Made by a program: the position numbers and the translations under genes. Source: Bdellovibrionales bacterium (lineage in GTDB: Bacteria; Bdellovibrionota; Bdellovibrionia; Bdellovibrionales; UBA1609). From it: a stretch of DNA of 64,000 bases. Positions 2,195 through 50,038 of the stretch are shown piece after piece (within the stretch, counting starts at the first letter, position 1; the number at the start of each line of letters is the position of its first letter). Below the pieces are notes generated by a model. It saw nothing but the letters and a program-made list of their open reading frames with translations. It was not told the origin of the DNA and did no database searches. The stretch is taken from positions 118,027 through 182,026 of the forward strand of contig JAYUKW010000001.1 in the NCBI GenBank assembly GCA_043764155.1, written 5' to 3'.

Positions 2195-3190
2195 ATGTTA
2201 AATTTAATTAAATTTCGAATCCTATTTATTCTGTTACTAAATTCCTCTTCTGCGCTTGCAACTAGTCTTGATACTAATCAATTAACAAGTGTAGAAAAAT
2301 GTAGTCATATTCTCACTTTGTATCCTGATGCCATTGAAAGTTTTGATGTTCAGAGCAACACATTAGTTTTTAAAAATGGACATCGTAGTTTTTGTGATGA
2401 TGGACAGGTTTACAATTTAATTCAAAATTTAGATTATCAAAAACAAATGTCCCAAGTCGATTTAAGCGATATTCTTTTACAAGCTTATCCAGATCATTAC
2501 ATGGCTCCAATAACAGAAAAGAATTACTCTCCAGGCCGATTTCGTCACGATCAACTTTTAATAAATACATATTTAAATATAAACGCCCTTTCTAAAACAG
2601 ATCTTCTAAAATCGGCCAAAGATGATCTTACAATTGACGATGTAAAAATCCTAGCTCGCTACTTACAAATGGAAATCGTAAAAGTTAAATTTCTTGGTTT
2701 TGATATTAACATGAATCAAAGAAATGGGGCTGCTGAAGCCCTTGCACGAGTAGGGCGGCGGTTAGAAAAAGATTTTCCCCAGGGGGCTAAATGGCTTATT
2801 TCAAATCGAAATATGTCTGGGGGATTTAACATGCGATTTATCAGCGGAACTAAAAGACTATCTTCTCATTCATGGGGGATTGCGGTCGATTTCACATTAA
2901 AAAATGCGACTCCAAATTTAAAATGGTTTGATTCCTACTGGAAGTGGATTGCCGTATGTGCACCAAACTTAAAATGTTCACCAGCAAGAACTGACGAAGG
3001 GGCCAAATATCGAAGAGATTTAAGTGAAGAACTTTTAGATGTTCAGATCTATCCCCTAAACTTCGACCACTTCCCCCCAGAAATTGTTCAAGTCTTTGCC
3101 GACGAAGGTTACATCTGGGGCGGTCACTGGCACCACTTTGATACAATGCACTTCGAGTACCGTCCCGAATTCTTCACCCATCAAAAATAG
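2195..3190 (+). CDS. secreted M15-family (LAS-type) zinc peptidase, probable peptidoglycan peptidase
   Basis: 331 aa; signal peptide; SSHSWGIAVDF and GGHWHHFDTMHFEY metal-ligand motifs; last codons and stop lie inside the palindrome arm. Confidence 0.7.
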   Translation: MLNLIKFRILFILLLNSSSALATSLDTNQLTSVEKCSHILTLYPDAIESFDVQSNTLVFKNGHRSFCDDGQVYNLIQNLDYQKQMSQVDLSDILLQAYPDHYMAPITEKNYSPGRFRHDQLLINTYLNINALSKTDLLKSAKDDLTIDDVKILARYLQMEIVKVKFLGFDINMNQRNGAAEALARVGRRLEKDFPQGAKWLISNRNMSGGFNMRFISGTKRLSSHSWGIAVDFTLKNATPNLKWFDSYWKWIAVCAPNLKCSPARTDEGAKYRRDLSEELLDVQIYPLNFDHFPPEIVQVFADEGYIWGGHWHHFDTMHFEYRPEFFTHQK

Positions 3191-3642
3191 TCCTACACTT
3201 ACTAATTCTTAAAAAAACTTATTTAAAGTCTATTTTGATTATAAATATAATTTTCATCATAGAATTTAAAATAGGCTCGTTGGCGTGAAGCCTTGCTCGA
3301 AATCTATTCTGGTTTTTATATAAATTTAAAGATCATTGGGACATTTAAAACAGGGCAGACCTTGTCATTCGCTTTGCAGATTAATTTTGTTCTCTAGACA
3401 TTGCTTAACAAACTATAATGGTTGTTTTAACTTATCCAGCAGAGCAAAGCTTCACGCCAACGAGCCTATTTTAAATGTCCTAATGATCTTTAAATTTATA
3501 TAAAAACCAGAATAGATTTCGAATGCAAGGCGAATGACAAGGTCTGTCCTATTTTAAATTCTATGATGAAAATTATATTTATAATCAAAATAGACTTTAA
3601 ATAAGTTTTTTTAAGAATTAGTAAGTGTAGGACTATTTTTGA
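3181..3642. repeat. nested quasi-palindrome E1 (modules A-B-C-D-loop-B'-C'-D'-A')
   Basis: Outer arms 3181-3275 vs 3548-3642 are exact reverse complements (95/95). Inner arms 3301-3354 vs 3465-3518 match 52/54. Cassette B ctcgttggcgtgaagc is at 3276-3291, rc copy at 3449-3464. Cassette D gcagaccttgtcattcgc is at 3355-3372, rc copy at 3530-3547 (17/18). Apical segment is 3380-3442. Confidence 0.95.
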
Positions 3643-4427
3643 CAGGTGGGGCAGAAGTAGCTGGATCGGTTGGACTGGGTGATTTTTTTAATTGTTGTTT
3701 GGCAGATATTGCATTTGGAATTTTCTTGGCCATAGACTTGCCAATGATTTTGCATATCGCCTTGTTCGCCGGCAACGTTTTTATAATCTCGAAGTGAGCT
3801 TCCACCTTTTTTAATGGCTTCATTTAACACATTCTTGGTTTCTGTAATGATATTAATCCAATCATTAAATTTTAATTTCGATGTTATTTTTGTGGGTTTG
3901 ATTTTTGTTTTAAAAAGAATTTCAGAGGCATAAATGTTACCTACGCCTAAAATATTTTTTTGATTTAAAATCCATGATTTTATTGGTGTGTTTGATTTTT
4001 TTGCTTTTGAATAAAAATCATTTGAATCAAGCTGGTCATGAATGGGATCGGGGCCAAAATTTTTAAATGTATTCTGATCAAATTTTAAAATATATCCAAA
4101 ACGTCTAGGATCATTGTAAATTAAATTTATATTACTCCATTCAATTACAACATGATCGTGTTTTATTGGTGCGTAAGTAGCTTCATATCGCCAGTGACCA
4201 GTCATACCTAAGTGTGAAATAAAATGATGAGTATTAGTTTTTAAAATTAAAAATTTACCACGACGATCAACAGATAAAATACTTTTATTTTTCAAGTCCT
4301 TTAATTCTCTTAAAGGTAGTGGGAAGCGCAAATCTTTTCTTAGGAGCTTAATTTCTTTGATTGCCTCTTTGGGCAACTGGTTTTGAATACCTAGTTTTAT
4401 AATTTCGACTTCAGGGAGTTCTGGCAT
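3633..4427 (-). CDS. mutM: formamidopyrimidine-DNA glycosylase
   Basis: 264 aa; MPELPEVE N-terminus; C-terminal zinc finger CNICQ...FCPTCQK; stop codon lies inside the E1 arm. Confidence 0.9.
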   Translation of the reverse strand: MPELPEVEIIKLGIQNQLPKEAIKEIKLLRKDLRFPLPLRELKDLKNKSILSVDRRGKFLILKTNTHHFISHLGMTGHWRYEATYAPIKHDHVVIEWSNINLIYNDPRRFGYILKFDQNTFKNFGPDPIHDQLDSNDFYSKAKKSNTPIKSWILNQKNILGVGNIYASEILFKTKIKPTKITSKLKFNDWINIITETKNVLNEAIKKGGSSLRDYKNVAGEQGDMQNHWQVYGQENSKCNICQTTIKKITQSNRSSYFCPTCQK

Positions 4428-6816: not shown

Positions 6817-8307
6817 ATGTCATCGAATTTATTAAATTTTGCATTAATTTGTCTTGTTTTAAGTCCACTAAGTCTACCATATTTAGTTTCTCAAAATTCT
6901 AAATCTACATTAAGTTTTGGAATTTACTTCGGCCCTATTTTAGCCCTTATTCTTTCAATTCAATCCTATGCTATAAATACACCGCTTATTTTAAATTCAA
7001 GAGCAGTTTTTTTACCTAATGAAAATTTAGGTTTTTACTTGGATATTTTGTCAGGATTTGTATTAAGCTTTGTTTTATTAATTGGCGCTGTGACTACAAA
7101 ATTTTCGTTCAGATACTTAGAAATAGATAAAAATAGAAATCTTTTTTTAAAATCAATATCATATGTCCTTTTTTCAGTTACGGTTATGCTTTTATCAGAT
7201 AACTTTATTCAATTTTTTGTATTTTGGGTTTTAACATCTTACTTTCTTCATAAGCTTTTGACTCATGTTAAAAATGATTCAGAGGCAGAAAGTGCGGCTC
7301 GTCAAAAGTTTTGGACTAGCAGATTAGGCGATCTATTTTTATTAATTTCAATATCTTGTTTTTATGTAATTTTTCGAAGTTTTAATTTTTCAGAATTAGT
7401 AAGAACTGATTTAATTCACAACTGGAATAATAAATGGTTACTAGATGTCGGATGCATATTTTTGGTTTTAGGTTCCATTACTAAGTCTGCACAATGGCCA
7501 TTCCAATCTTGGTTACCACTTACGATGAACACGCCCACGCCTGTTTCAGCTATTATGCATGCAGGGGTTATAAATTCTGGTGGTTATTTATTAATCAGAC
7601 TAAGTCCCCTCATGAATCAATCACATTTAAGTTTAGTATTTTTGACTCTAATAGGTGCTTTAACAGCAATTATTGGCGTCATGGTGATGTGGACCCAAAC
7701 TGATGTTAAAAAAAGTTTGGCCTATTCTACTATTTCACAGATGGGTTTTATGATGCTTCAAATTGGAGTTGGAGCCTATTCTTTAGCTTTGATTCATATG
7801 ATGGGCCATGCATTTTATAAAGCCTATTCATTTTTAACTATAGGACAGGTTGTAGATTATGGACGACTGAATCGTATTTTTGCATCTGAAAAATTGAAGT
7901 ATAATTTCAATTTTGCGTTTTCTATCCTCTTTGCTATACTGATGACAGGTGTTCTGTATTTAATTATTGATCCAAACTTTTCAAATAAGAACCAAGGCTT
8001 AGTGCTTTTAGGTATCTTAAGTCTTTCACTGTCACAAGTTCTACAAAATTCAAAAAATATATTAACGGGTTTAATAACTTGTGCTGCCATTTGTGTTCTT
8101 TACGGATTGATTTATAAAATTTCGATATTTACTTTTTTAGATGTTTTAAATCTCCCCAAGGGAATGGACTCAAGTATGTCCTTACTTATTGATTTTGTAT
8201 TAATCTTTGCTTTTTTAACTTTGTTGTTAATGCAAAGTCACTTTGTGTATCTAAATCAGCATCGTTTTTTTAGAAAAATCTATGTCAAATTATTAAATGG
8301 ATTTTAA
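6817..8307 (+). CDS. dabB: DabB, proton-conducting membrane subunit (NuoL/MrpA-like) of DAB inorganic-carbon pump
   Basis: Polytopic membrane protein; AQWPFQSWLPLTMNTPTPVSAIMHAGVINSGGYLL matches the NuoL/Mrp antiporter core; directly upstream of dabA. Start moved to the ATG at 6817 with a GGAG RBS (track ORF starts at 6781). Confidence 0.8.
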   Translation: MSSNLLNFALICLVLSPLSLPYLVSQNSKSTLSFGIYFGPILALILSIQSYAINTPLILNSRAVFLPNENLGFYLDILSGFVLSFVLLIGAVTTKFSFRYLEIDKNRNLFLKSISYVLFSVTVMLLSDNFIQFFVFWVLTSYFLHKLLTHVKNDSEAESAARQKFWTSRLGDLFLLISISCFYVIFRSFNFSELVRTDLIHNWNNKWLLDVGCIFLVLGSITKSAQWPFQSWLPLTMNTPTPVSAIMHAGVINSGGYLLIRLSPLMNQSHLSLVFLTLIGALTAIIGVMVMWTQTDVKKSLAYSTISQMGFMMLQIGVGAYSLALIHMMGHAFYKAYSFLTIGQVVDYGRLNRIFASEKLKYNFNFAFSILFAILMTGVLYLIIDPNFSNKNQGLVLLGILSLSLSQVLQNSKNILTGLITCAAICVLYGLIYKISIFTFLDVLNLPKGMDSSMSLLIDFVLIFAFLTLLLMQSHFVYLNQHRFFRKIYVKLLNGF

Positions 8308-8331: not shown

Positions 8332-10827
8332 ATGATTCAAATACAATTTGATTCTAAAACTAAGAATTTTGATTCGAACATCCAGAATTTATTAAAAAAA
8401 TCGAATATTGTAGATGTAAAGCACTGTGTTCAATCTGTTAAGCAAAGATTAACTCCGGTATGGGATCTAAGAGATAATGTGGCAGTAAACCCTTTTTTTG
8501 GATTTAGGGATAAAAATTTTTTAGATACTTTATGTTTTCATGAGAGCTTAACTGGTAATAGTCTTTTACCTTCATATAAATATTTTAATTCCCTTTACAG
8601 ATCAGGAAAAATTACTGATGCAGATTTAAATCTAGCATTAATTGAATATAATAATAATTTCGCTAACACTGACAAAATAAGTCTACATGATCTTAAAGTG
8701 GCACTTGAGATAGGTCTTGAATCTGATATTGTTAAAATTAATTCAGGATCTGATGTTTATGATTTGCAAAATAAAACACAATGGACCCCTAAAGTTAAAA
8801 AACATATTTCTAAGTGGTTAAGTGCATACTTTGACGAAGGTCAATCTTTGTGGTCAATGCCAACTAAAAATCTTCGCCTTTTCACCGCTTGGAAAGAATT
8901 AGTGATTTACGACAAATCATTTAAAAAATTAGGATCTAAATTCAATAGTACTTTTTTTGGTTTGTCGGATCAGCCGTCAGAAGTAATTGAAAATTTATCT
9001 GAAAAGTTAATACAAAAATTTGATTTAAGTTCAGAACAACTTGAAATATATTTTTTTAAACTAATAAGTCAAATTCAAGGTTGGGCTTCTTTTGTTCAAA
9101 AGTTTGAATTCGAAGCGGCTCGAAAAAATCAAAATGATGATTTAATTAGAATCGGTGGATTTGAAGATATTTTAGCGATATGTCTCTGTTATGATTACAG
9201 TTTTCTTAATTTAGTAAATTTTGGACCTAAATTCATTTTAATAAATACTTCTTTTGATGAAATCATGACGAACGACAATGTAAAAAAAAATATTCTTCTT
9301 AAGGCTAGTGAAGATAATTATCGCAGCCAGCTATTATCAAAAATTAATGTTAATACTTTAACTGAAAAAAATAATTTTCCTGAAGCTCAAATGGCGTTCT
9401 GTATAGATGTTCGTAGCGAATTGATTCGACGTCATATTGAAAATTTATGTCCTCAGATTCAGACGATAGGTTTCGCGGGATTTTTCGGTATTTCGATGTC
9501 GCATAGGACTTTGGGCGCTTCTCATGCAGAACAACAGTGCCCGGTTTTACTAAATCCAGTTTGCGAGATTCAAGAAATATCTAAATCTAAACATTTAGGA
9601 ATAAAAATTAAAAATAAAATCAAAAATATTAATTTTTTAAAATTTTTAAAATCTGGTGTTAATTCAAGTTTCACTTTTGTAGAGACTTTTGGCTGGACAT
9701 ACATTTTTAAAATGATTAAGTCTAACCATTTCAAATGTAAGATAAATTTAAGTTTTGAACCACTTATTATTAAATCATCGAAAGATAATCAAAGAAGACC
9801 TGATCTAACATCCTTATCTTTAGATCAAAAAACTAAATTAGCTTTCGGAGCTTTAAAAAATATGGGACTCACATCAAATTTTGCTCCCTTTGTTTTTTTT
9901 ATGGGACATAAAAGTAAAACAGAAAACAACCCTCAATCTTCGGCTTTAGACTGTGGCGCTTGCGCAGGTCATAGCGGTTTGTCTAATGCTAGAACTTTAG
10001 CGGGCCTGTTAAATGATCTAGGATTGCGTGAAGAATTAAAAATGAACTATAAAATTGATATTCCATTAAACAGTTGTTTCATATCTGGAGTTCATATCAC
10101 AACAACAGATGATTTTGAATTTGATGAATATCATATTACAGACGCATCAACTTTAAAGTCTTTTTATAGTCTAAAAAATAAACTTAAATTTGCTCAAATT
10201 AAAACACTTAAAGAAAGATCAAAAAATTTTAATTATTGTGAAAATTTAAGCGACAAAGATTTAATTGAACAGATCCAAAATAAATCTAATGACTGGTCAG
10301 AGGTTCAGCCCGAATGGGCCTTAGCAAATAATGCGGCTTTTATTGCTGCACGACGAGAGCTAACTCGAGGTCTAGATTTGAACGGGCGTACTTTCCTTCA
10401 TAATTATGATGCCAAAAAAGATTTGGATCTAAGTATTTTAGAATTAATTATGACAGCCCCTATGATTGTCGCTAACTGGATTAATATGCAATATTACGTT
10501 TCCGCAGTAAATCCTAAGGATTATGGCAGTGATGATAAAACCTTACACAACATTGTAGGACAAATCGGATTAATCAGAGGAAATGGCAGCGACCTTTTGA
10601 TGGGTTTAAGTTTACAGTCCTTATTTAGAAATGGTCAGCTGATGCATCAACCTTTAAGGCTACAAGTTATATTAGAAGCGGCTACAAAAGATATGGATCA
10701 AATTATTTTAAAACATAAAATGGTCAAAGATTTAGTCGAGAATGAATGGTTAAATTTAATTTCAATATGTCCCGACTTTGGATCAAAAAAAATATACTGT
10801 AAGGGCGAATGGGTGCAATTAAATTAA
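8332..10827 (+). CDS. dabA: DabA (DUF2309), beta-carbonic-anhydrase-like subunit of DAB inorganic-carbon pump
   Basis: 831 aa; FCIDVRSE (CxDxR) and ALDCGACAGHSG Zn-site-like motifs typical of DUF2309; AGGAG RBS; paired with dabB. Confidence 0.85.
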   Translation: MIQIQFDSKTKNFDSNIQNLLKKSNIVDVKHCVQSVKQRLTPVWDLRDNVAVNPFFGFRDKNFLDTLCFHESLTGNSLLPSYKYFNSLYRSGKITDADLNLALIEYNNNFANTDKISLHDLKVALEIGLESDIVKINSGSDVYDLQNKTQWTPKVKKHISKWLSAYFDEGQSLWSMPTKNLRLFTAWKELVIYDKSFKKLGSKFNSTFFGLSDQPSEVIENLSEKLIQKFDLSSEQLEIYFFKLISQIQGWASFVQKFEFEAARKNQNDDLIRIGGFEDILAICLCYDYSFLNLVNFGPKFILINTSFDEIMTNDNVKKNILLKASEDNYRSQLLSKINVNTLTEKNNFPEAQMAFCIDVRSELIRRHIENLCPQIQTIGFAGFFGISMSHRTLGASHAEQQCPVLLNPVCEIQEISKSKHLGIKIKNKIKNINFLKFLKSGVNSSFTFVETFGWTYIFKMIKSNHFKCKINLSFEPLIIKSSKDNQRRPDLTSLSLDQKTKLAFGALKNMGLTSNFAPFVFFMGHKSKTENNPQSSALDCGACAGHSGLSNARTLAGLLNDLGLREELKMNYKIDIPLNSCFISGVHITTTDDFEFDEYHITDASTLKSFYSLKNKLKFAQIKTLKERSKNFNYCENLSDKDLIEQIQNKSNDWSEVQPEWALANNAAFIAARRELTRGLDLNGRTFLHNYDAKKDLDLSILELIMTAPMIVANWINMQYYVSAVNPKDYGSDDKTLHNIVGQIGLIRGNGSDLLMGLSLQSLFRNGQLMHQPLRLQVILEAATKDMDQIILKHKMVKDLVENEWLNLISICPDFGSKKIYCKGEWVQLN

Positions 10828-11064: not shown

Positions 11065-11730
11065 TTATCTTTTTTTTATTTGTGCTTTAGCATAATTTCT
11101 CATCAGACCAATCACTAAACCTTGCAAAGTGATTTCATGGGGTTCGTACCACATGGATTTCATTTTGGAGTTGGCAGGTCTAAGTTCCACCTGACCATTT
11201 TTATAAAATATTCTTTTAACAGTGGCTGATTCATCTTCTGTCGAAACCACGGCAAGACTGCCTTCAGAGGCAAAGGAATTTTTTTCGATAATCACTAAAT
11301 CACCACTGTGAATGCCTTCGTCAATCATAGATTCCCCTTGAACACGAAGGACAAAACTTTCCTTGGGTTTTTGAACTAATGAAAGAGGAACATCGACCCA
11401 CTGGTCAAAGTTTTTTTCTTCTAAAGGGAGGCCGGCCGCCACCTTCCCAAGCAGAGGGAGGGTGACAGCGACGGACGGTTTTTCCATCAGATCGGCAAGG
11501 TAATCTGTGGAAGATTTTAAAAGCTTAAGGGAGCGTTTTTCATTCGAGTTTCCTTTTTGAATATAATTTTTGGACTCGAGCTGTTGAATGTAACGTTGAA
11601 CTGAATTGATGCTGGCAAAACCAAAATGGTTTTTAATTTCAGTAAAAGTCGGAGAGATTCCATGGGTTTTTACATAGGTTTCAATAAATTCCAGTGTCGC
11701 TTTTTCTTTGGATGTTAAGGACTTTGCCAT
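11065..11730 (-). CDS. lexA: LexA repressor (S24 peptidase)
   Basis: 221 aa; N-terminal wHTH; cleavage region VAAGLP; catalytic Ser in GESMIDEGIHSGD and Lys in ATVKRIF. Confidence 0.9.
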   Translation of the reverse strand: MAKSLTSKEKATLEFIETYVKTHGISPTFTEIKNHFGFASINSVQRYIQQLESKNYIQKGNSNEKRSLKLLKSSTDYLADLMEKPSVAVTLPLLGKVAAGLPLEEKNFDQWVDVPLSLVQKPKESFVLRVQGESMIDEGIHSGDLVIIEKNSFASEGSLAVVSTEDESATVKRIFYKNGQVELRPANSKMKSMWYEPHEITLQGLVIGLMRNYAKAQIKKR

Positions 11731-25088: not shown

Positions 25089-25100
25089 ATTGACGAACCT

Positions 25101-25467
25101 GTAAGTTTCTCTTTAAGCCGGATTCTGTAACTTTAAAAATCGTCACAATTTTTAAAATCTAACCATCATTCCTCTAGGATTAAAGTTACCTTTAACCTCA
25201 AGCAATCTACCCGAAAACTGGTGCGAGCCGCACTCATAGCGTTTCCCTATTTGACCTTGCTTCGCGCAGAGTTTTGCTGTTTTCACTCCAACAGCTCCCC
25301 GAAGATCTCCCGTTCCCGATCTAAGGATCATAGCCTTGGACATTCTCTCTGTTCCACTGTTCCTCATCTTACGATGGAGGGGCGTTACCCCATGCGCTGC
25401 TCTACGAAGTCCGGACTTTCCTCCAAAATGGTTTAACCCATTTCAGCGATGGTCTTTCAAAACTTAC
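25101..25467 (-). ncRNA. rnpB: RNase P RNA (bacterial type A-like)
   Basis: The - strand contains GGAGGAAAGUCCGGAC (CR-I/P4 5'), GGUAACGCC, CAGUGGAACAGAGAG, GCAAGGUCAAAUAGGG, GGGUAGAUUGCUUGAG, CCUAGAGGAAUGA and ACAGAAUCCGGCUUA (P4 3'). P1 pairs GUAAGUUU with AAACUUAC; P2 pairs GACCAUC with GAUGGUU. Confidence 0.93.
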
Positions 25468-31390: not shown

Positions 31391-31659
31391 TTTCTGAAAA
31401 TAGAGCTTCTCATTTAAGTCATTTAATTTTTGAAAAATTATGGAATGATGATGTTGTTGAATACTCTGATGAAGGTGCGGCCCTAAAAGATTATAAACGT
31501 GGTTTAGATAAGTTTTTAAAAGAACACACGGATGTCGATAAAAAAGCAAAAAGCATGATTTCGTCGCAAAGCCGAAGTATTCTTGAAGGAACGGCTGAGT
31601 GGGAGACTCTTTATAAAAAATATTACGAAACTGAACTTAAAAGAAAGGGTATAGATTAA
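31387..31659 (+). CDS. DUF507-family small protein
   Basis: 90 aa; EGTAEWETLYKKYYETELKRKG, as I recall for DUF507. Confidence 0.6.
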   Translation: MISENRASHLSHLIFEKLWNDDVVEYSDEGAALKDYKRGLDKFLKEHTDVDKKAKSMISSQSRSILEGTAEWETLYKKYYETELKRKGID

Positions 31660-33122
31660 TGATCAAATTTGTATTCGCCGTATTTTTATCCTTAAGTGCT
31701 TTAAATAGTTTTTTGAATGTGGCCCAAGCTGATATTTCTTGGCAAGGTCGCTACAGAGCCTCTTACAATTATATTACTGATCCTAGTTTAAGTGGTGATG
31801 GTTCAGATAAAAATTATTTTTTACATCACTTGGTTTTAACACCTAAAATTATTTTGGCAGATGGGTTTGAACTCATTTCAACTTTAGATATTTTAAACAA
31901 TGGTGATTATGCAGTTGTTGGATCACAGGCAGGACAAAGTCTTGGTTCTGGTGGATCTAAGCCTGCAAATACTTTTTATGGTTCTGATGGATCCCCAGCT
32001 TTAGCAGATAATCAAATTGGTAATGTGCGTGATGCCAATATACGTGAATTTTATTTAGTTTATAAACATGCAGGCGGAAGATTTAAGTTAGGTCGTGCGC
32101 CGCTGCATTTTGGACTTGGAATTAATTTAAATAACGGCCAAGGTGCTTTCGACCATTATTTCGATAACAGAGACATGGTGTCTTACGAAGTTCTATTCGG
32201 TGGAATGAAGTTTCAGCCTTATATTGCAAGAATCACGGACGGGTTTAATAGCTCAGGCAATGCGGCTAATGAGCTTGGTTTGATAGCAGATTGGGATAAA
32301 AAAGATTCAGGACTTAAGCTTGGACTTTTGGGGCTTATTCGTCACGTGCCAGGCAGTTTAAATAATAATCAAGTCTCAACATCTGGAGCCGCTGATTTTC
32401 AACGATATGGTGTTTATGTTGAAAGAGTAAATACAAAAGATTCGGATTTTAGATACGCTCTCGAGCTTGGTTTAAATTCTGGAAAATTGGGATTAAATTC
32501 AACCGGTAAAGAAATCAAGTACAGTGGTTTAGGACTTGCTTTTGAAATGGATTATTTCACACCAGTTCGGGGTTTAAAAATGGGACTCAAGTCAGGTTAT
32601 GCCGCTGGAGCAGATGCATCTAAAGATGATAATTTTTCCGCGTTTGCATTTGATCGAAATTATGATGTAGGTATGCTTTTATTTAATCACCCAATGGGAA
32701 ATAAAAACTTAGACTTGTTTTCGTCGACTGCTTTTGGAAGGCAAGGAGCTAACTTTGGTTCGGGGTATCAACCCAATCAGTCTATTGATTCCGAAACTGT
32801 TGCAAATTCAATTTATGTAGCCCCATATATTTCATACGATGTTGATGCAAAATGGAATATCACTTCGTCTTTACTTTGGGCGCAGTTAGAAAATACAAAT
32901 GTAAATTCACCATTTTTCTCTACAACATCCAATTTAATAGTAGATCGAGATTTGGGTTTTGAAGTTGATTTCGCACTGACTTATAAACCATTCAAACTTT
33001 TAACTTGGGAGACACGTCTTGGTGGATTCTTCCCTGGAAAAGCGTTTGAAGGTGGATCGCAAAACTTTGATACTAAAAATGTGATTGGTGGAGTGTCTCG
33101 TATATCTTTAAGCTTTGAGTAA
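31659..33122 (+). CDS. putative outer-membrane beta-barrel protein
   Basis: 487 aa; signal peptide ending AQA; Gly/aromatic-rich alternating strands; coupled to the DUF507 pair. Confidence 0.55.
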   Translation: MIKFVFAVFLSLSALNSFLNVAQADISWQGRYRASYNYITDPSLSGDGSDKNYFLHHLVLTPKIILADGFELISTLDILNNGDYAVVGSQAGQSLGSGGSKPANTFYGSDGSPALADNQIGNVRDANIREFYLVYKHAGGRFKLGRAPLHFGLGINLNNGQGAFDHYFDNRDMVSYEVLFGGMKFQPYIARITDGFNSSGNAANELGLIADWDKKDSGLKLGLLGLIRHVPGSLNNNQVSTSGAADFQRYGVYVERVNTKDSDFRYALELGLNSGKLGLNSTGKEIKYSGLGLAFEMDYFTPVRGLKMGLKSGYAAGADASKDDNFSAFAFDRNYDVGMLLFNHPMGNKNLDLFSSTAFGRQGANFGSGYQPNQSIDSETVANSIYVAPYISYDVDAKWNITSSLLWAQLENTNVNSPFFSTTSNLIVDRDLGFEVDFALTYKPFKLLTWETRLGGFFPGKAFEGGSQNFDTKNVIGGVSRISLSFE

Positions 33123-33137
33123 TATTTTATTTCTAAG

Positions 33138-33239
33138 CTGTCTAGTTCACTCGTTGGCTTTATGGGCGGCATCGTTCAGTCCGCTTCGCTGGGACTTCCG
33201 TTCGCACGCCCAGCCAACTCGCTGGAACTTTTCTTTATT
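33138..33239 (+). repeat. GC-rich structured module G1
   Basis: Has 5' ctgtctagttcactc and 3' tcgctggaacttttc, identical (15/15 each) to the flanks of the module in the E2 apical loop. Internal stem: gttggct..gggcg / cgccc..agccaac. Confidence 0.85.
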
Positions 33240-33368
33240 GTCTAGTTCACTCACACCCACACGTCGAACTTCGTTCGAATAACGTGGGGCTCGTTGGAAC
33301 CCGCAGAGAGACTTCGTCTCTCGTTTGCGAGCCTAGGCTCGCTCCGGCGGGGAACTTTTCTTTTTATT
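33240..33368 (+). repeat. GC-rich structured module G2 (tandem to G1)
   Basis: Starts gtctagttcactc and ends ggaacttttc. Contains hairpins cgaac-ttc-gttcg, gagagac-ttc-gtctctc and gcgagc-ctag-gctcgc. Abuts the stop codon of the convergent gene. Confidence 0.8.
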
Positions 33369-34848
33369 ACTGTCGAACGGGTCGTCTTGTAGTGACCTGT
33401 TGAAAGCCTGGGCCAGCATCTTGTCCACGCTGAATTCCTTCTGAAGCACGAAGTGCATTTATGTTAACATCCCCACTAACAATGTCACCATTTGGAAATG
33501 CAGTAGGTGGTAATAACATCGCATTGCTTGGATCTAAGTTTGCTGTAGGGGAAGCCAAGTCAGTAAAGATCGAAGGTTGAATTCCAATGGGGTTTTGAGT
33601 TGTTACAGTCGGAACTTGAGTCGTAGACGACGCTTGTAGTGAAGTTATTGGCTGACCTTGCGCTATTTTCACAGACTCTTGGGCCCAGTAGTTAACTGCA
33701 AAATCAATATTTGTATTTGCTGAAGCTAGAGCTGCCGGATCTGCGGCTAAAGCAGTACTGGCTTGAGCTTTTAAACTTGCGCTGATGTTTGTTAATCCTG
33801 ATTGTAGCTCAATTAGTTTTGTACTTAATTGTGTCTGTGATAACTGGTCACTTGGGTTCAATTTTAATTGATTTTGTAATGCTGTGATCTCTGCAAGCTT
33901 AGAACTAATTAAGATCGCGGCCTGTCCATGAGCTTGAGCCCCATACTGTAAACCCAACTGGTTTCCTGTGGCTGCGTCAGCTTGACCAGCAGCTGTGTAA
34001 AAGTCATTGGCTGTTCTTTGTGTTGCATTTGCAGAGCCCATGTTGTCACCTAATTCGTCGGCAAAAATGGGAGCAATGTTCGCATCAAAGTAAGCTTTTT
34101 GATCTGCTTCACTTAAGCCTTCAAGTTCTGCCATATGACAATCTTTAATTTGATTGAATTCGGCTGGAACATCTTTATTTAAAAATGCAGATGTTGATGC
34201 TGGTGCAATTTCAGAATCTAAATCAAGGTTAAATCTTTGATCATCATCAGAGTCTTCAGAATTGGAACGATCACCAAAATCATGATCTAGTAAACCTAGT
34301 GCAATTAGTTTTTCTGAAACCTCAGTAAAAGCCACAGCTTTATCTTCACGACTTCCGCGTTCATTTGCTCTTTTGTATCGGGCGATTAGATCTGTCATTT
34401 GAAGACTGTCTTCTTGGCGAACTAAACACTGATTGCTTTTAGTTTGGTAATTTCTTAATGCCTGTCTGACATCATCAGTTGATGGTAAATTTTCTGGAAT
34501 CAAACCTGTAAATGTTCCGTCGTCAGAGGACTCGGCTTCGCCATCTTCAATATTACTAACTTCATCGCCGGCATTTTCACTTAGTTCATCAGCATCTTGG
34601 ATTCGCATAGGAGGAGTCGCAGCCGGAGGACTATCTTCAAGGTCTTCGGCATTATAAGTGCGCCCATTGATAATCAGTGTATTCCCGGAACCTTCAATTG
34701 ATCCGTCGACAGCGACTTCATTGGCAAGCTCGCGGTGTATTTTATCAGAGTTAAAAGGTTTCATAAAAAAAGAAACCTGAAACACGGCTAAGCTTAAAAC
34801 GGCGGTGGCTTTAAAGATACCCTTAATATACTGACTTATGTTTTTCAT
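33367..34848 (-). CDS. hypothetical membrane-anchored/secreted low-complexity protein (acidic N-half, Ala/Gln-rich C-half)
   Basis: 493 aa; N-terminal hydrophobic anchor; no recognisable domain. Confidence 0.5.
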   Translation of the reverse strand: MKNISQYIKGIFKATAVLSLAVFQVSFFMKPFNSDKIHRELANEVAVDGSIEGSGNTLIINGRTYNAEDLEDSPPAATPPMRIQDADELSENAGDEVSNIEDGEAESSDDGTFTGLIPENLPSTDDVRQALRNYQTKSNQCLVRQEDSLQMTDLIARYKRANERGSREDKAVAFTEVSEKLIALGLLDHDFGDRSNSEDSDDDQRFNLDLDSEIAPASTSAFLNKDVPAEFNQIKDCHMAELEGLSEADQKAYFDANIAPIFADELGDNMGSANATQRTANDFYTAAGQADAATGNQLGLQYGAQAHGQAAILISSKLAEITALQNQLKLNPSDQLSQTQLSTKLIELQSGLTNISASLKAQASTALAADPAALASANTNIDFAVNYWAQESVKIAQGQPITSLQASSTTQVPTVTTQNPIGIQPSIFTDLASPTANLDPSNAMLLPPTAFPNGDIVSGDVNINALRASEGIQRGQDAGPGFQQVTTRRPVRQ

Positions 34849-39060: not shown

Positions 39061-39654
39061 ATGAAATGGATTGGTTTAACAGGATGTATGGGGTGTGGAA
39101 AATCCACAGTAGCCCAAATTTTAAGGCAAGATCATGATCTTGAAGTCATTTCAGCTGACGATGTGGCACTAGAAATTTTAAAAACGGACCAAGAGCTTCA
39201 GGACTACATATCTAAAAATTTAAATGTTGGCTTTGATCCCGACTTTAGTTTGTATCGATCAAAGATCTCGGCCAAAGTTTTTGGCAATCCAGAGGCCTTA
39301 AAAAAATATGAACAGATTTTTCATCCTAAGGTGAAACAATATGTAGCAGGACTTAAAGAAAAGCTTTCAAAAAATCAAGATCTTGCTTTTTATGATATTC
39401 CTCTCTTGTTTGAAAAAAACATGCAATCAGATTTTAGTGCCATTATCGGTGTCTTTGCTGATCATGATGTGCAAATGGCTCGACTTAAAGAGCGAAACCA
39501 ATGGACAGATGATCAAATTGCAGAACGCTTAAAACATCAGATTCCAAATAAAACCAAAATCGACCAATGTGATTTTATTATTTTTAACAACTCATCCTTA
39601 GATAGTTTGAAAACTCAAATCATCGACATCCTGGCTAAACTCGTCAGTCATTAA
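39061..39654 (+). CDS. coaE: dephospho-CoA kinase
   Basis: GLTGCMGCGKST P-loop right after the ATG at 39061 (the track ORF begins at a TTG at 39028); last 15 nt and stop lie inside the E2 arm. Confidence 0.85.
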   Translation: MKWIGLTGCMGCGKSTVAQILRQDHDLEVISADDVALEILKTDQELQDYISKNLNVGFDPDFSLYRSKISAKVFGNPEALKKYEQIFHPKVKQYVAGLKEKLSKNQDLAFYDIPLLFEKNMQSDFSAIIGVFADHDVQMARLKERNQWTDDQIAERLKHQIPNKTKIDQCDFIIFNNSSLDSLKTQIIDILAKLVSH

Positions 39655-40074
39655 AATCTCATTTACATAATATTTAATTTTTATATTTTAAAGAGATCTT
39701 CACAATTTAAAACAGGCTCGTTGGCATGAGGCCTTGCTCGAAATTCATTCTACATTCTATTTAAATTCAAAGATCCTTAGGACATTTAAAACAGGGCAGA
39801 CCTTGGCATTCGCTTTGCACAAGTTGGAAAAGTTCCAGCGAACTGGCGAGGGTGCGTAGCCCCTCGAAAGCCAGTGAGTGAACTAGACAGTAGCAAAGCT
39901 TCACGCCAACGAGCCTGTTTTAAATGTCCTAAGGATCTTTGAATTTAAATAGAATGTAGAATGAATTTCTAATGCAAGGCGAATGACAAGGTCTGCCCTG
40001 TTTTAAATTGTGAAGATCTCTTTAAAATATAAAAATTAAATATTATGTAAATGAGATTTTAATGGCTGACGAGT
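39639..40074. repeat. nested quasi-palindrome E2 (same architecture as E1)
   Basis: Outer arms 39639-39716 vs 39997-40074 match 77/78. Inner arms 39741-39795 vs 39914-39968 match 55/55. B is at 39717-39732, rc copy at 39898-39913. D is at 39796-39813, rc copy at 39979-39996. The apical segment 39821-39891 is a G module in - orientation. Confidence 0.95.
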
Positions 40075-40103
40075 GGTTGGCCACTCGATGTGAGGGATTA
40101 GTT

Positions 40104-47030: not shown

Positions 47031-47906
47031 ATGGTATCTGAAATTTTTAATCCCGAGTTGTGGACTACTGTAGAAGGTTTTAGTTTTTCAGATATCACTT
47101 ATCATCAGGCTAAAAATCAAGGAACAGTTCGAATTGCATTTAACCGCCCTGAGGTTCGAAATGCGTTTCGTCCGCAAACGGTGGATGAGCTTTACACCGC
47201 TTTAGATCACGCTAGACAAAATCCGAGAGTTGGAACTGTAATTTTAACTGGAAATGGGCCTTCCCCAAAAGACGCCGGATGGGCTTTTTGCTCCGGCGGG
47301 GATCAGCGGGTCCGCGGTGAATCTGGCTACCAGTACGATCCCTTATCTAAGGCCGGTCGTCTTCATATTTTAGAAGTGCAGCGCCTTATTCGCTTTATGC
47401 CAAAAGTTGTTGTGTGTGTTGTCCCTGGATGGGCTGTGGGGGGTGGGCATTCACTTCATGTTGTGTGTGACTTAACTTTGGCGAGCGTTGAGCATGCCGT
47501 CTTTAAGCAAACCGATGCTGACGTTGCTAGTTTTGACGGGGGATACGGCTCCGCATATTTAGCTAAAATGGTAGGACAAAAGAAAGCTCGCGAAATTTTC
47601 TTTTTAGGAAAAAGTTATAGCGCACAACAAGCGCTAGAAATGGGAATGGTGAACGCCGTTTTTAATCATAATGAATTAGAATCAGAAGCTTTAAAATGGT
47701 GTGCAGAGATCAATTCAAAAAGTCCAACTTCGATCCGAATGTTGAAGTATGCATTTAACTTAGCCGATGATGGAATGGTGGGGCAGCAACTTTTTGCAGG
47801 CGAAGCCACACGTTTGGCTTATGGAACAGAAGAGGCCAAAGAAGGACGGGATGCGTTCTTAGAAAAACGAGATCAAGATTTTTCTGAATTTCCATATCAT
47901 TTTTAA
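47031..47906 (+). CDS. menB: 1,4-dihydroxy-2-naphthoyl-CoA synthase
   Basis: 291 aa; crotonase fold; FCSGGDQRVRG; C-terminal DFSEFPYHF typical of MenB. Confidence 0.85.
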   Translation: MVSEIFNPELWTTVEGFSFSDITYHQAKNQGTVRIAFNRPEVRNAFRPQTVDELYTALDHARQNPRVGTVILTGNGPSPKDAGWAFCSGGDQRVRGESGYQYDPLSKAGRLHILEVQRLIRFMPKVVVCVVPGWAVGGGHSLHVVCDLTLASVEHAVFKQTDADVASFDGGYGSAYLAKMVGQKKAREIFFLGKSYSAQQALEMGMVNAVFNHNELESEALKWCAEINSKSPTSIRMLKYAFNLADDGMVGQQLFAGEATRLAYGTEEAKEGRDAFLEKRDQDFSEFPYHF

Positions 47907-48009
47907 AAACCCTCTGACCCTTTTTTCTGTCCAATCTGCGTCAAAAATTCATATATATTGGAATAATTTTTGACGCAGTTTGGACAGAAAAAAGGGTCAG
48001 AGGGTTTTT
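47905..48009. terminator. 45-bp-stem hairpin between convergent menB and the hotdog gene (bidirectional terminator candidate)
   Basis: 47905-47949 pairs with 47965-48009 with a single mismatch (47935/47979); 15-nt loop. The left arm starts within the menB stop codon. The right arm covers the last codons and stop of the convergent gene. Confidence 0.7.
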
Positions 48010-48479
48010 ATGCCGCGTTTTTTTAAAGATAAAGTCAGTTCAAAAGTCATGATATGGTCGTTTAAGTTAGAAACTTCGAAGGCTTTTCCACGAATAATTT
48101 TTTCTTCTCTTTCGCCAGAAAGTAAAGCTTTTGAGATCAGATCTTCAACATCTTTAGTTTGTTCGCAAATAAAATGAACATCACCTTCTGCTCGTTTTAA
48201 GAAGTCAGCTTTAAAATCTTTAAATAAAAAATTGATAGGCTTCTTTTTTAAAAAAACCAATTCCACAGCTTTAAGCGCACACGTCAACTCTGCGCCCACA
48301 GTCAAAGCCCCAAAGTACATAGCCCCTAAATGGTTTTTAGTTCTACGTTTAAGTTTAATTTCAACTACAGATCTTTTTTCACTAAGCTCTAAAACTCGTG
48401 GTCTCATAAATGCAATAATTGGAATCTTAAAAAAAGTTAACAAATAAATCATAAAACTTAATTTCGTTTCTGCTTTCAT
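47997..48479 (-). CDS. hotdog-fold thioesterase-like protein (DUF4442/YiiD_C-like)
   Basis: 160 aa from the ATG at 48479 (GGAG RBS). The track ORF extension to 48545 runs through an inverted repeat. Family assignment is by weak recollection only. Confidence 0.45.
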   Translation of the reverse strand: MKAETKLSFMIYLLTFFKIPIIAFMRPRVLELSEKRSVVEIKLKRRTKNHLGAMYFGALTVGAELTCALKAVELVFLKKKPINFLFKDFKADFLKRAEGDVHFICEQTKDVEDLISKALLSGEREEKIIRGKAFEVSNLNDHIMTFELTLSLKKRGIKTL

Positions 48480-48489
48480 ATTTACTCCA

Positions 48490-48606
48490 AAAAGTGCCAG
48501 GTTCCGTTTGCGAATTAATGTTGTTATTATCGATTTGGTATTCAATTTAAATGCATTTCAAACCATAACAAATGCGTTTAATCCACAAACGGAACCTGGC
48601 ACTTTT
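48490..48606. repeat. 21-bp perfect inverted repeat flanking a 75-bp spacer
   Basis: aaaagtgccaggttccgtttg (48490-48510) pairs with caaacggaacctggcactttt (48586-48606). The right arm abuts and overlaps the POT stop codon. Confidence 0.85.
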
Positions 48607-50038
48607 AGGTGGGTTCGGCGAGGTTGTGATCTTGTAGGAATGTTTTTTCTTTGTAGAAGTAGGCGATGATCATAAAGATGATTCCGGCCCAAAAGACCAT
48701 AGCGGTGAAAAACCAAAAGTAGTTCGCGCCGGCGAGGATATTAAAACCAAGGGCTTTGTCTTTGGCCACAAGACCATTGACGTTGGCCGTGACGATATTT
48801 CCTAAAGATATTGAAAACATAAATAAGGCCATAACAAACGACTTCATGCTGTTTGGTGCCTGAGTGTAAGAAAATTCTAAAGCTGTGATTGAAATTAATA
48901 TTTCAGCCGCAGTGATCAATACAAAAGCTAGAACCTGCCAAAGCATAGATGGTGTTGCACCGTTTTGAATCCACTGCTCTGTTATAGCGATAACAGCAAA
49001 TGAAGCTGCTGTTAGAAAAAAGCCAACACTGATTTTTCTAAGTGGAGTTACTTTTACCCTGCGTTCAAAGAAAGGATAAATAATTAAAGTAAAAAGTGGA
49101 ATATAAAGTAAAACTAAAACCGGATTTACTGCTTGAACTTGCGCAGGCAAAATAGTGAAGCTAGCAAAACCTAAATTCACAATACGATCAAGCTTGTCAG
49201 CTTGTAACACCCATGATGAGCCCGTCTGGTCGTAGAGGGCCCAGAATACAGCGATCACTAAATAGATAAGACCGAGTTTTAAAAGAGCAAAAATTCCGTC
49301 TCTGCTTTTTAGATCTTTTAAAAATGTAGCTCCGTCAGCAGGCATAGCTATGAACTCGTGGCGACCCATATAAAATATGACGGTCGCTACGAACATTAAA
49401 ATCCCAGGAATACCAAAGGCGACAGATGGACCATAAATCTCTAACATCCAAGGAATGATTAATATTGAGAAAAATGATCCAAAGTTAATAGACATATAAA
49501 AGTAACTAAACACTTTATCTATTAAATGTTTTTTACTAGCGTCGAACTGATCGCCAACATGCGCAGACACACAGGGCTTGATCCCACCAGAACCAATAGC
49601 GATAAGTCCCAATCCTACAGCAAGTAAAGTTTTGGGTTCAGCAAGAGTTAAAATAAACGGAACTTCCATTAAGGCTAAAACCAGATGTCCAACACAATAA
49701 ACCAGAGACAATCCAATAATCGTTTTATATTTCCCTAAAAATAAATCAGCCAGCAAAGCGCCAAATAGTGGAAAAAAATAAACTGCAGCAACAAAATAAT
49801 GATACCATTCAGAGGCTTCAGAACCGGTAAAAAAAGCATCCTTACCTTGGCTATCTAAAATAAACTTAGTCATAAAAATCATCAGAATAGCTTTCATTCC
49901 ATAAAAACTAAATCTCTCAGCAGCTTCATTCCCGATGATATAAAAAACCCCTTTAGGCATTTTATCTTTTGATGCACTAGTCATTTGATTTTGAGACTGG
50001 TTCGGCGTTTTATTATTGGTGCTACTAATTGAACTCAT
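48605..50038 (-). CDS. POT-family proton-dependent oligopeptide transporter
   Basis: 477 aa; GNEAAERFSFYGM (ExxERFxYYG-type) signature; about 12-14 TM. Confidence 0.85.
   Translation of the reverse strand: MSSISSTNNKTPNQSQNQMTSASKDKMPKGVFYIIGNEAAERFSFYGMKAILMIFMTKFILDSQGKDAFFTGSEASEWYHYFVAAVYFFPLFGALLADLFLGKYKTIIGLSLVYCVGHLVLALMEVPFILTLAEPKTLLAVGLGLIAIGSGGIKPCVSAHVGDQFDASKKHLIDKVFSYFYMSINFGSFFSILIIPWMLEIYGPSVAFGIPGILMFVATVIFYMGRHEFIAMPADGATFLKDLKSRDGIFALLKLGLIYLVIAVFWALYDQTGSSWVLQADKLDRIVNLGFASFTILPAQVQAVNPVLVLLYIPLFTLIIYPFFERRVKVTPLRKISVGFFLTAASFAVIAITEQWIQNGATPSMLWQVLAFVLITAAEILISITALEFSYTQAPNSMKSFVMALFMFSISLGNIVTANVNGLVAKDKALGFNILAGANYFWFFTAMVFWAGIIFMIIAYFYKEKTFLQDHNLAEPT

Follow-up and report, generated by a model that had tools for sequence, protein, structure and literature searches.

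How can a DNA palindrome keep long arms in almost perfect complementarity while the sequence of these arms turns over from one copy to the next, and why are short segments within it conserved? This question is raised by E2, a non-coding palindrome of 436 bases at positions 39639-40074 of a 64-kb stretch of DNA from a Bdellovibrionales bacterium (this whole stretch is referred to as the window), and by its sister copy E1 at 3175-3648 of the same window. Our preferred answer, to which we give about an even chance, is that E2 is a low-copy, non-autonomous mobile quasi-palindrome similar to REPINs (repetitive extragenic palindromic sequences paired as hairpins) and MITEs (miniature transposable elements with inverted repeats), that its arms are homogenised and extended by DNA-level copying and that its conserved cassettes are probably protein sites.

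Both copies have the same module order, A-core-B-C-core-D-apex-B'-core'-C'-D'-core'-A', where A and C are the outer and inner arms and B and D are short cassettes. E2 has outer arms of 78 nt (39639-39716 and 39997-40074) with 99% complementarity and inner arms of 56 nt (39740-39795 and 39914-39969) with 100% complementarity. For E1 we observed outer arms of 101 nt (98%) and inner arms of 58 nt (97%). The coordinates, module order and self-complementarity that a first-pass annotation of the sequence had given for E2 were correct. Folded as single-stranded DNA, E2 reaches -168.5 kcal/mol compared to -41.6 ± 4.8 in shuffles (z = -26.7). The core motif TTTAAAAYAGG has eight occurrences in the window, where 0.47 would be expected by chance, and all eight are inside E1 or E2. 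The homology between the two copies consists of two blocks of 116-118 nt with 88-89% identity, one from core 1 to cassette D and the other from cassette B' to core 4. The outer arms are unrelated (alignment z 0.1-0.7), and so are the apices (a GC-rich 72 nt in E2 and an AT-rich 64 nt in E1). The inner arms differ at 10 of 45 positions on the left and at 9 of 45 on the right, and all but one of these differences are mirrored in the partner arm, which agrees with the annotated divergence of roughly a quarter in arms that stay complementary. For the cassettes the annotation stood in part: forward B differs by 2 nt and forward D by 1 nt, but the reverse-strand cassettes are not identical to E1 B and D as had been claimed. 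E2 B' equals E1 B' rather than E1 B, and E2 D' is 1 nt off either D copy of E1. Both elements are flanked by convergent genes, an M15 peptidase gene and fpg at E1 and coaE and a short-chain dehydrogenase (SDR) gene at E2.

The mirrored changes were studied across four copies, namely E1, E2 and two copies from another genome, L002 and L012, which are described below. The four core-to-core units were aligned, with L012 and L002 reverse-complemented so that the cassettes correspond, and the pairs were taken from RNAalifold. It predicted 87 pairs, and 97.6% of the cells were paired. Changes on both sides were found in 35 of the 87 pairs (45 cells), compared to only four cells with a one-sided change. 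None of 500 shuffles reached the observed pairing or covariation values, and slid controls gave 4-7 pairs. Two helices within the cassettes showed no variation across the four copies. Many of the double changes are transversion swaps (between AU and UA or between AU and CG) without a wobble intermediate. Furthermore the two strands of the palindromic element fold about equally, with -270.6 and -261.6 kcal/mol. Selection on single pairs is too weak an explanation, because stems of 56-101 bp stay 97-100% paired. Template switching between inverted-repeat arms is reported to make the arms alike and longer, to flip spacers and to give rise to seemingly compensatory changes in a single step (PMC8604942, PMC13100816, PMC8794818). 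The pattern in the arms looks like the product of such DNA-level copying rather than like a structured RNA gene.

A second line of evidence comes from the outer ends of the arms, which are made of host gene ends. At E2 the native end of coaE (..LVSH*, of which ..SH* is kept in orthologues) lies in the left arm and its inverted copy closes the right arm. At E1 the native end of fpg (..TCQK*, 3633-3648) lies in the right arm. The inverted copy at 3175-3190 (plus strand) forms the end of the left arm and encodes an extra C-terminal THQK* of the M15-family peptidase (window 2195-3190, plus strand). All eight orthologues of this peptidase have a conserved ..HFEYRPEFF; seven stop there or one residue on, and the eighth (P0039) has a longer unrelated tail. 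The THQK* tail was thus observed in the window protein alone and in none of the eight orthologues. In L002 the native uvrA end ..SYMNL* is in the right arm and the left arm contains an inverted copy of it with a 2-nt deletion, and in L012 a degenerate outer extension with 74% complementarity reaches the fpg stop codon again. The mismatches in the arms sit in these host-derived ends (outer arms of E1 and E2; L002). Since the arms contain host gene ends, the outer arms were written in place, with one flank copied in inverted orientation over the other. There is also no reason why copies of host coding sequence should belong to a selected RNA fold. If the degenerate outer parts are included the palindromes fill nearly all of the intergenic space, and the growth of the outer arms appears to halt where a flanking gene would be damaged.

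Past the perfect arms, the palindromes run ~12-15 nt further into the host gene end at lower complementarity (Table 1), so that there is a gradient from a perfect centre to a decayed periphery. We also asked whether outer arm A arose as a copy of inner arm C that has since diverged. Locally the alignments hinted at this, with z values of up to 5.5 if the core was included, but global tests without the core gave z values of ~2, and this origin is unproven.

The four elements contain 16 cassettes, eight of B type and eight of D type. B and D are diverged forms of one cassette of 22-24 nt that consists of RGG, 4 or 7 nt, TTGKC, 4-5 nt and GCYTTGC, and the CTCG of the B type is invariant. Across the axis every B-type cassette has one of D type opposite it, and the two layers in which this occurs have opposite polarity. 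The earlier description of these sites as bubbles, in the sense of plain loops, does not hold: B and D are related and B pairs partly with D'. The pairing consists of a TTG(G)C helix and a 7-bp helix (GCYTTGC with GCAARGC) that covaries between layers, and it leaves two small asymmetric internal loops of 4 vs 7 nt and 5 vs 4-5 nt. In E1, E2 and L012 the Y:R position of the 7-bp helix is occupied by C:G in the outer layer and by T:A in the inner one. Within single cassettes an AGG-N3-5-CCT mini-hairpin is possible in seven of the eight D-type cassettes, and the B type has a weak 4-bp stem only (both read from the cassette alignment). The core is the inner end of each arm, and the window and the L002 inner layer share the form TTTAAAAYAGG. 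In L012 and the L002 outer layer the sequence is different and keeps only a constant (A/G/C)GG at its end. Core+B and core+D form imperfect inverted repeats of 34-36 nt at both limits of the E1/E2 homology. The shared unit from core 1 to core 4 measures ~300 bp and comprises four end-like cassettes of ~35 bp (core plus B or D) as well as the inner arms. Nested in it is an inner unit (core-D..B'-core') that measures 131-140 bp in E1, E2 and L002 and is bounded by imperfect inverted repeats of ~35 bp. Because the cassettes are conserved between genomes whose proteins are only ~66-68% identical, and because B always faces D, we regard them as putative sites, probably for a sequence-specific trans-acting protein.

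Three likenesses to known sites were weighed and set aside. A sigma-54 promoter was rejected as the common function: the E2 D cassette TTGGCATTCGCTTTGCA fits TGGCAC-N5-TTGCW, but the other 15 cassettes have GG changed to GT or a spacing that is one base too long. The E2 match itself (39801-39819, CTTGGCATTCGCTTTGCAC) has the -24/-12 consensus at the correct spacing and points into the apex, which is probably a coincidence. There is a putative likeness to a Himar1/mariner end (ACAGG..TTGGC), and the flanking dinucleotide is not TA. A dif/Xer site was also rejected, as nothing here resembles the dif sequence of Bdellovibrio given in PMC2731167.

We then consider where the element occurs. The GTDB representative genomes, a set to which the window genome itself does not belong, were scanned with the narrow pattern TTTAAAAYAGGCTCGTTGGC. 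This returned one real locus, L002 in the Bdellovibrionales metagenome-assembled genome (MAG) GCA_031412575.1, and three chance matches. An exact 20-mer was present once in GCA_031412575.1 and in no other GTDB representative. The copy at L002:7300-7713 lies downstream of uvrA; its grammar is the same, its arms are unrelated and its apex carries an additional 30-bp hairpin. Orthologous loci in relatives were recovered by protein-guided look-ups. The fourth copy, L012:10985-11305, belongs to the same MAG as L002 and lies in the spacer between the M15 peptidase gene and fpg, i.e. at the E1 locus. With respect to the flanking genes, its cassettes run in the opposite order to those of E1 (A D C B .. 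D' C' B' A'). All four copies lie immediately downstream of a gene. What had been described for the window, that is conserved cassettes, mirrored arm changes, a variable apex and a setting between convergent genes, extends to two copies in another genome.

The insertion is polymorphic between genomes. At the E2 site the coaE-SDR spacer is without the element in three relatives: L008 (145 nt, in GCA_031412575.1), L009 (197 nt) and L010 (61 nt). Analogously, the M15-fpg spacer of the E1 site is without it in L014 (32 nt) and L015 (95 nt), and the uvrA 3' flank in L016, which came from a search for homologues of the UvrA C-terminus that returned mostly short fragments. Two copies were present in the ~70 kb covered for the window genome, another two in the 40.7 kb covered for the second MAG, and none in ~55 kb from further relatives. 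Searches with profiles of B and D across 226 kb of DNA detected the 16 known cassettes only, and no solo or single-layer form. In metagenome contigs the B-cassette pattern gave nothing beyond two chance matches in coding DNA, and neither pattern scans of viral contigs nor blastn against plasmids gave a further copy.

Two further assemblies of the window genome cover the elements. E1 is identical in L011 over 14.4 kb. In L007, which covers E2, cassette 1 is D+TTA instead of B (10653-10683, corresponding to window 39714-39740). This is the sole difference in 20.6 kb, and as the cassette exactly complements D' the outer bubble is closed. The variant could be a real conversion or heterogeneity, or it could be an error in the path through the assembly graph; a path error is possible because k-mers typically have the length of the 56-nt arm.

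From these observations we propose the following mechanism. The unit has moved to new intergenic sites just 3' of genes, and in relatives the orthologous sites are empty. Once inserted, the strongly hairpin-forming unit would cause the nascent strand to fold back on itself. Its 3' end may be anchored at this stage by the terminal 11-12 bp together with the inner stem, the bubbles having already been copied from the proper template. The polymerase would then copy the adjacent flank as an inverted duplicate and only afterwards go back to its own template. Repeated rounds of this, as intramolecular template switching in replication or repair, or gene conversion between the arms, could keep the long AT-rich arms perfect and push them outward, with growth ending when selection on the flanking gene stops it. 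A change in one arm would thus appear at once in the other. The cassettes are exempt from this homogenisation, presumably as the functional sites of the element. B and D may serve as two different 'ends' bound or cut by a trans-acting DNA enzyme (a transposase, HUH-type nuclease or recombinase) encoded elsewhere.

Several points weigh against this account. There are four copies only, probably from one or two independent lineages, and E1, E2 and L012 share the C:G outer and T:A inner signature. Template switching across a bubble should erase the asymmetry of B and D, as L007 shows with D facing D'; the survival of the asymmetry needs the extra assumption of selection or of a requirement for mobility. 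A direct target duplication was not seen and the flanks are inverted repeats of 66-90 nt, which means that the insertion is not of the standard cut-and-paste type. E1 and L012 share one locus and could reflect ancient vertical inheritance instead of mobility, although the related L014 and L015 are empty there. Lastly, no transposase (Y1_Tnp included), recombinase or HUH domain was detected in the 40 open reading frames (ORFs) of at least 110 aa that were scanned directly in the window. Most other large window ORFs were covered by precomputed Pfam annotation, and the scanned genes are ordinary housekeeping genes. The RAYT-like or HUH gene that the first-pass annotation proposed to look for was not found in the window, to which the search was limited.

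Of the other explanations, a structured RNA fares best, though we think it unlikely. The element could for example be the 3' untranslated region of the convergent genes, folded into a rod-like hairpin of ~440 nt whose B/D' loops bind a protein, and act as a bidirectional terminator, mRNA stabiliser or protein sponge. Conserved internal loops combined with covarying stems would be expected of such an RNA, and co-transcription is probable for an element that always lies immediately 3' of a gene. In our own reading of the cassettes, the variable sites R16 and Y19 of the B type keep a small GGCU/RGCY stem via wobble pairs, and one mismatch in the E2 arms is a G-U wobble on the plus strand. However, both strands fold equally well, E1 and L012 are oppositely oriented to their flanking genes, and one-sided changes are rare (4 vs 45 double-sided) in stems that hold copied host coding sequence. 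Perfect duplexes of 56-101 bp are also unlike functional RNAs. Duplexes of this length are expected substrates of RNase III. In Rfam no family reached the threshold within the elements, and the sub-threshold matches were to generic long-hairpin microRNA precursor models only. Promoter-like and terminator-like sites were no commoner in the elements than in shuffles. Intrinsic terminators (a GC-rich stem plus a T run) were absent from E2, and the one in E1 is a chance-level site inside a D cassette. Taken together, the near-perfect stems, the ratio of changes, the host coding copies, the equal strands and the lack of promoter, terminator or Rfam signals make selection on the fold, which the first-pass annotation had preferred under the term structure-constrained element, the weaker interpretation. 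Its own alternative, internal homogenisation of each palindrome, fits the same evidence better.

The outer arms of E1 and E2 each contain a mirror-image pair of inward-facing sigma-70-like hexamers (Table 1), which are no commoner than in shuffled sequence. Small ORFs of 41-55 aa within the elements are not conserved between copies. In the window as a whole the sole Rfam match at the gathering score was RNase P RNA class A (25098-25466, minus strand, 207.5 bits).

A rather improbable variant of DNA-level copying gives the leading part to an enzyme. B and D would be the two ends recognised by a hairpin- or cruciform-specific enzyme, and a nick at the junction of cassette and arm followed by fold-back priming, as in rolling-hairpin replication, would write the inverted copy of the flank. 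If this were true, transposition or maintenance of the element would create an inverted rather than a direct 'target duplication', and the palindrome would extend itself and reshape the 3' ends of the genes beside it, its bubbles being kept as enzyme sites.

There is only a slim chance that the element is a site-specific inversion module, in which the cassettes serve a recombinase as asymmetric sites of shufflon or Xer type, crossovers at the core generate the junctions A/B, C/D, C/B and A/D, and the element flips. All four combinations of a left {A, C} with a right {B, D} do occur in each copy, E1 and L012 are in opposite orientation, and L007 has the other cassette at one junction in an otherwise identical 20.6 kb. 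Conservation is also confined to one side of the core. The sfx sites of shufflons show the same one-sided conservation. On the other hand, inversions at core sites cannot yield long perfect arms or copies of host gene ends, and no series of core-to-core inversions worked out by hand derives the observed order from a simpler one. Neither L012 nor the outer layer of L002 conserves the core, there is no likeness to the Bdellovibrio dif site, and the window scan gave no recombinase gene nearby. Nor is the L007 variant among the four inversion isomers; a de Bruijn path error with k no larger than the 56-nt arm could produce it.

We attach a similarly small probability to plain nesting of MITEs. Here an element of ~135 bp (core-B...D'-core') that prefers hairpin apices would have inserted into itself and the composite would then have entered existing intergenic palindromes, without any copying of arms. 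The size and terminal repeats of the inner unit in E1, E2 and L002 suit this idea, as does the 30-bp hairpin within the inner unit of L002. The palindromic TTTAAA could hide a target duplication, and other palindromic repeats are common in these spacers. Yet the arms cannot all predate the insertion, given that the outer arms hold native coding ends and that the E1 arm rewrites the end of a neighbouring gene. Empty sites in relatives are only 32-197 nt long and have no such long palindrome, single-layer or solo copies were absent from the 226 kb, and the mirrored divergence of the inner arms after the split of E1 and E2 would still require homogenisation. Finally, a chimeric fold-back arising in assembly or amplification has next to no chance of being the explanation: these are metagenome assemblies, palindromes are ambiguous in assembly graphs and L007 disagrees at one cassette, but E1 is identical in a second assembly over 14.4 kb, the same grammar appears at two loci in a MAG from another study assembled with k = 141 (longer than the inner arm plus its two cassettes), the flanking genes are intact on both sides, and an 11-nt repeat cannot produce A/B and A/D junctions at normal k-mer sizes.

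The apex of E2 belongs to a separate repeat family, the G module, which consists of TGTCTAGTTCACTC, a variable GC-rich hairpin, (TC)GCTGGAACTTTTC and then a T-rich run. Besides the E2 apex (39820-39891, minus strand) there are two tandem copies at 33139-33233 and 33239-33363 (plus strand), between the convergent genes 31659-33122 (plus strand) and 33367-34848 (minus strand). The apex therefore accepts foreign sequence, and the suggestion that it is an insertion slot is supported. An Rfam search of the tandem copies gave no match; the G module looks like a terminator-like or small-RNA-like unit.

Other palindromic repeats are found nearby. One intergenic repeat, AAAAGGTGCCAGGTTCC ... GGAACCTGGCACCTTTT, is found in the window genome as well as in several relatives, and it fills the coaE-SDR spacer at precisely the site that lacks E2. 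Another, at window 47904-48010 and also present in L007, is a 46-nt inverted repeat (TAAAAACCCTCTGACCC...) with 98% complementarity and a 15-nt spacer, between the genes for an enoyl-CoA hydratase and a DUF4442 protein. Table 1 gives the positions of the modules of both elements and of associated features.

Table 1. Modules of E2 and E1, cassette consensus sequences and associated sites (window positions unless a locus is named)
Feature	Position	Strand	Remarks
E2 outer arm A, left	39639-39705		first 16 nt (39639-39654) are the native coaE end, ..LVSH + stop
E2 core 1, TTTAAAACAGG	39706-39716	+	inner end of arm A; border of the unit common to E1, homology begins 2 nt before the motif
E2 B-type cassette, CTCG TTGGC ATGAG GCCTTGC T	39717-39738	+	opposite D' across the axis
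E2 inner arm C + core 2	39740-39795		83% identity to E1 inner arm
E2 D-type cassette, GCAGACC TTGGC ATTC GCTTTGC A	39796-39819	+	opposite B' across the apex
E2 apex, G module	39820-39891	-	member of a separate repeat family: TGTCTAGTTCACTC - GC-rich hairpin - TCGCTGGAACTTTTC on the minus strand
E2 B' cassette	39892-39913	-	B-type read on the minus strand
E2 core 3 + inner arm C'	39914-39969		56/56 pairing with C + core 2
E2 D' cassette	39973-39996	-	D-type read on the minus strand
E2 core 4 + outer arm A'	39997-40074		last 16 nt (40059-40074; 40060-40074 = TTAATGGCTGACGAG) are the inverted copy of the coaE 3' end, with the arm's only mismatch
E1 A	3175-3264
E1 core	3265-3275
E1 B	3276-3297
E1 C + core	3299-3354
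E1 D	3355-3378
E1 apex	3379-3442
E1 B'	3443-3464
E1 core + C'	3465-3520
E1 D'	3524-3547
E1 core + A'	3548-3648
B-type consensus			RGG / CTCG / TTGGC / RTRAR / GCYTTGC (from 16 cassettes, four elements)
D-type consensus			RGG / 7 variable nt / TTGKC / AYTY(N) / GCYTTGC (from 16 cassettes, four elements)
E1 hexamer pair	3222-3251	+	TTTAAA-18-TATAAT
E1 hexamer pair	3572-3601	-	TTTAAA-18-TATAAT
E2 hexamer pair	39662-39689	+	TTTACA-16-TATTTT
E2 hexamer pair	40024-40051	-	TTTACA-16-TATTTT
Lower-complementarity continuation, L002	L002:7286-7299 with 7714-7730
Lower-complementarity continuation, E2	39627-39638 with 40075-40088
Lower-complementarity continuation, L012	L012:10970-10984 with 11306-11319
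Repeat AAAAGGTGCCAGGTTCC ... GGAACCTGGCACCTTTT	48487-48609; L008:6195-6285; L009:5315-5455; L010:1755-1815; L015:3245-3275

These results have several implications. The near-perfect covariation, which most probably stems from DNA-level copying, is a warning for RNA discovery, as covariation-based methods would call a structured RNA here. An intergenic palindrome can also grow into neighbouring genes and rewrite their ends, as the THQK tail illustrates, which is a little-noticed route of gene-end evolution in bacteria. The conserved cassettes within arms that turn over completely point to a sequence-specific trans-acting factor, whose discovery might bring to light a new kind of DNA processing in a phylum that has been little studied.

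We conclude by comparing the element to known systems. REPINs combine conserved short inverted motifs with a less conserved hairpin-forming spacer that shows 'compensatory' changes (PMC3116915). E2 and its relatives resemble REPINs and bacterial interspersed mosaic elements (BIMEs), which are known from enterobacteria and pseudomonads, in that they are non-coding, extragenic and located downstream of genes and in that they have conserved inverted motifs and hairpin-forming variable arms. BIMEs have motifs of two types, Y and Z, that alternate with opposite orientations, as do B and D. REPINs are mobilised by RAYT transposases of the Y1 HUH kind, whose gene is itself flanked by the repeats, and a single REP is a small imperfect palindrome with a conserved tetranucleotide on its 5' side. 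REPINs, however, are ~100 nt long and single-layered, occur in tens to hundreds of copies and have motifs that are mutually paired at the outer ends. Here the cassettes are internal, two kinds face each other imperfectly and there are two layers. The arms of 56-101 bp are locus-specific and contain host gene ends, the copy number looks low and no RAYT gene was found in the window.

The similarity to MITEs (Correia/NEMIS, ERIC, RUP, Nezha) lies in the small non-autonomous unit with imperfect terminal inverted repeats of ~35 bp, the presence or absence at orthologous sites, the nested copies and the effect on the end of a neighbouring gene. The difference is that there is no direct target-site duplication and that the flanks are long inverted duplications of host DNA. 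The only possible hidden direct duplication is the palindromic TTTAAA, which neither L012 nor the outer layer of L002 contains. To our knowledge there is no related autonomous insertion sequence for the element.

Quasi-palindrome template switching, as in the Ripley/Lovett model, likewise perfects imperfect repeats, enlarges arms, inverts spacers and introduces multi-nucleotide changes in one event (PMC8604942, PMC13100816, PMC8794818). It has mostly been described for arms of 5-30 bp, whereas here arms of up to 101 bp overwrite gene ends, and it is not known as a permanent trait of a repeated element whose internal bubbles are protected. Integron attC sites, the attP site of CTX phage and the terminal repeats of parvoviruses and adeno-associated virus are similar in design only: the structure is kept while the sequence varies, and there are functional bubbles, in which the specificity lies in unpaired or bulged positions, a variable apex and flip/flop forms of an imperfect palindrome. 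In systems of this design a hairpin can also prime the copying of adjacent sequence into an inverted duplicate. None of the motifs of these systems is present here, no integrase or Rep gene is nearby and the element is chromosomal and intergenic. An integron attC site in particular was rejected, as the element has no GTTRRRY pair and is 436 nt long compared to 57-141 nt, and the window contains no integrase or cassette array. We therefore file the element as one of the bacterial palindromic-repeat kind that belongs to no named family and is unusual for its two layers, its asymmetric conserved bubbles and its arms that absorb the ends of genes.

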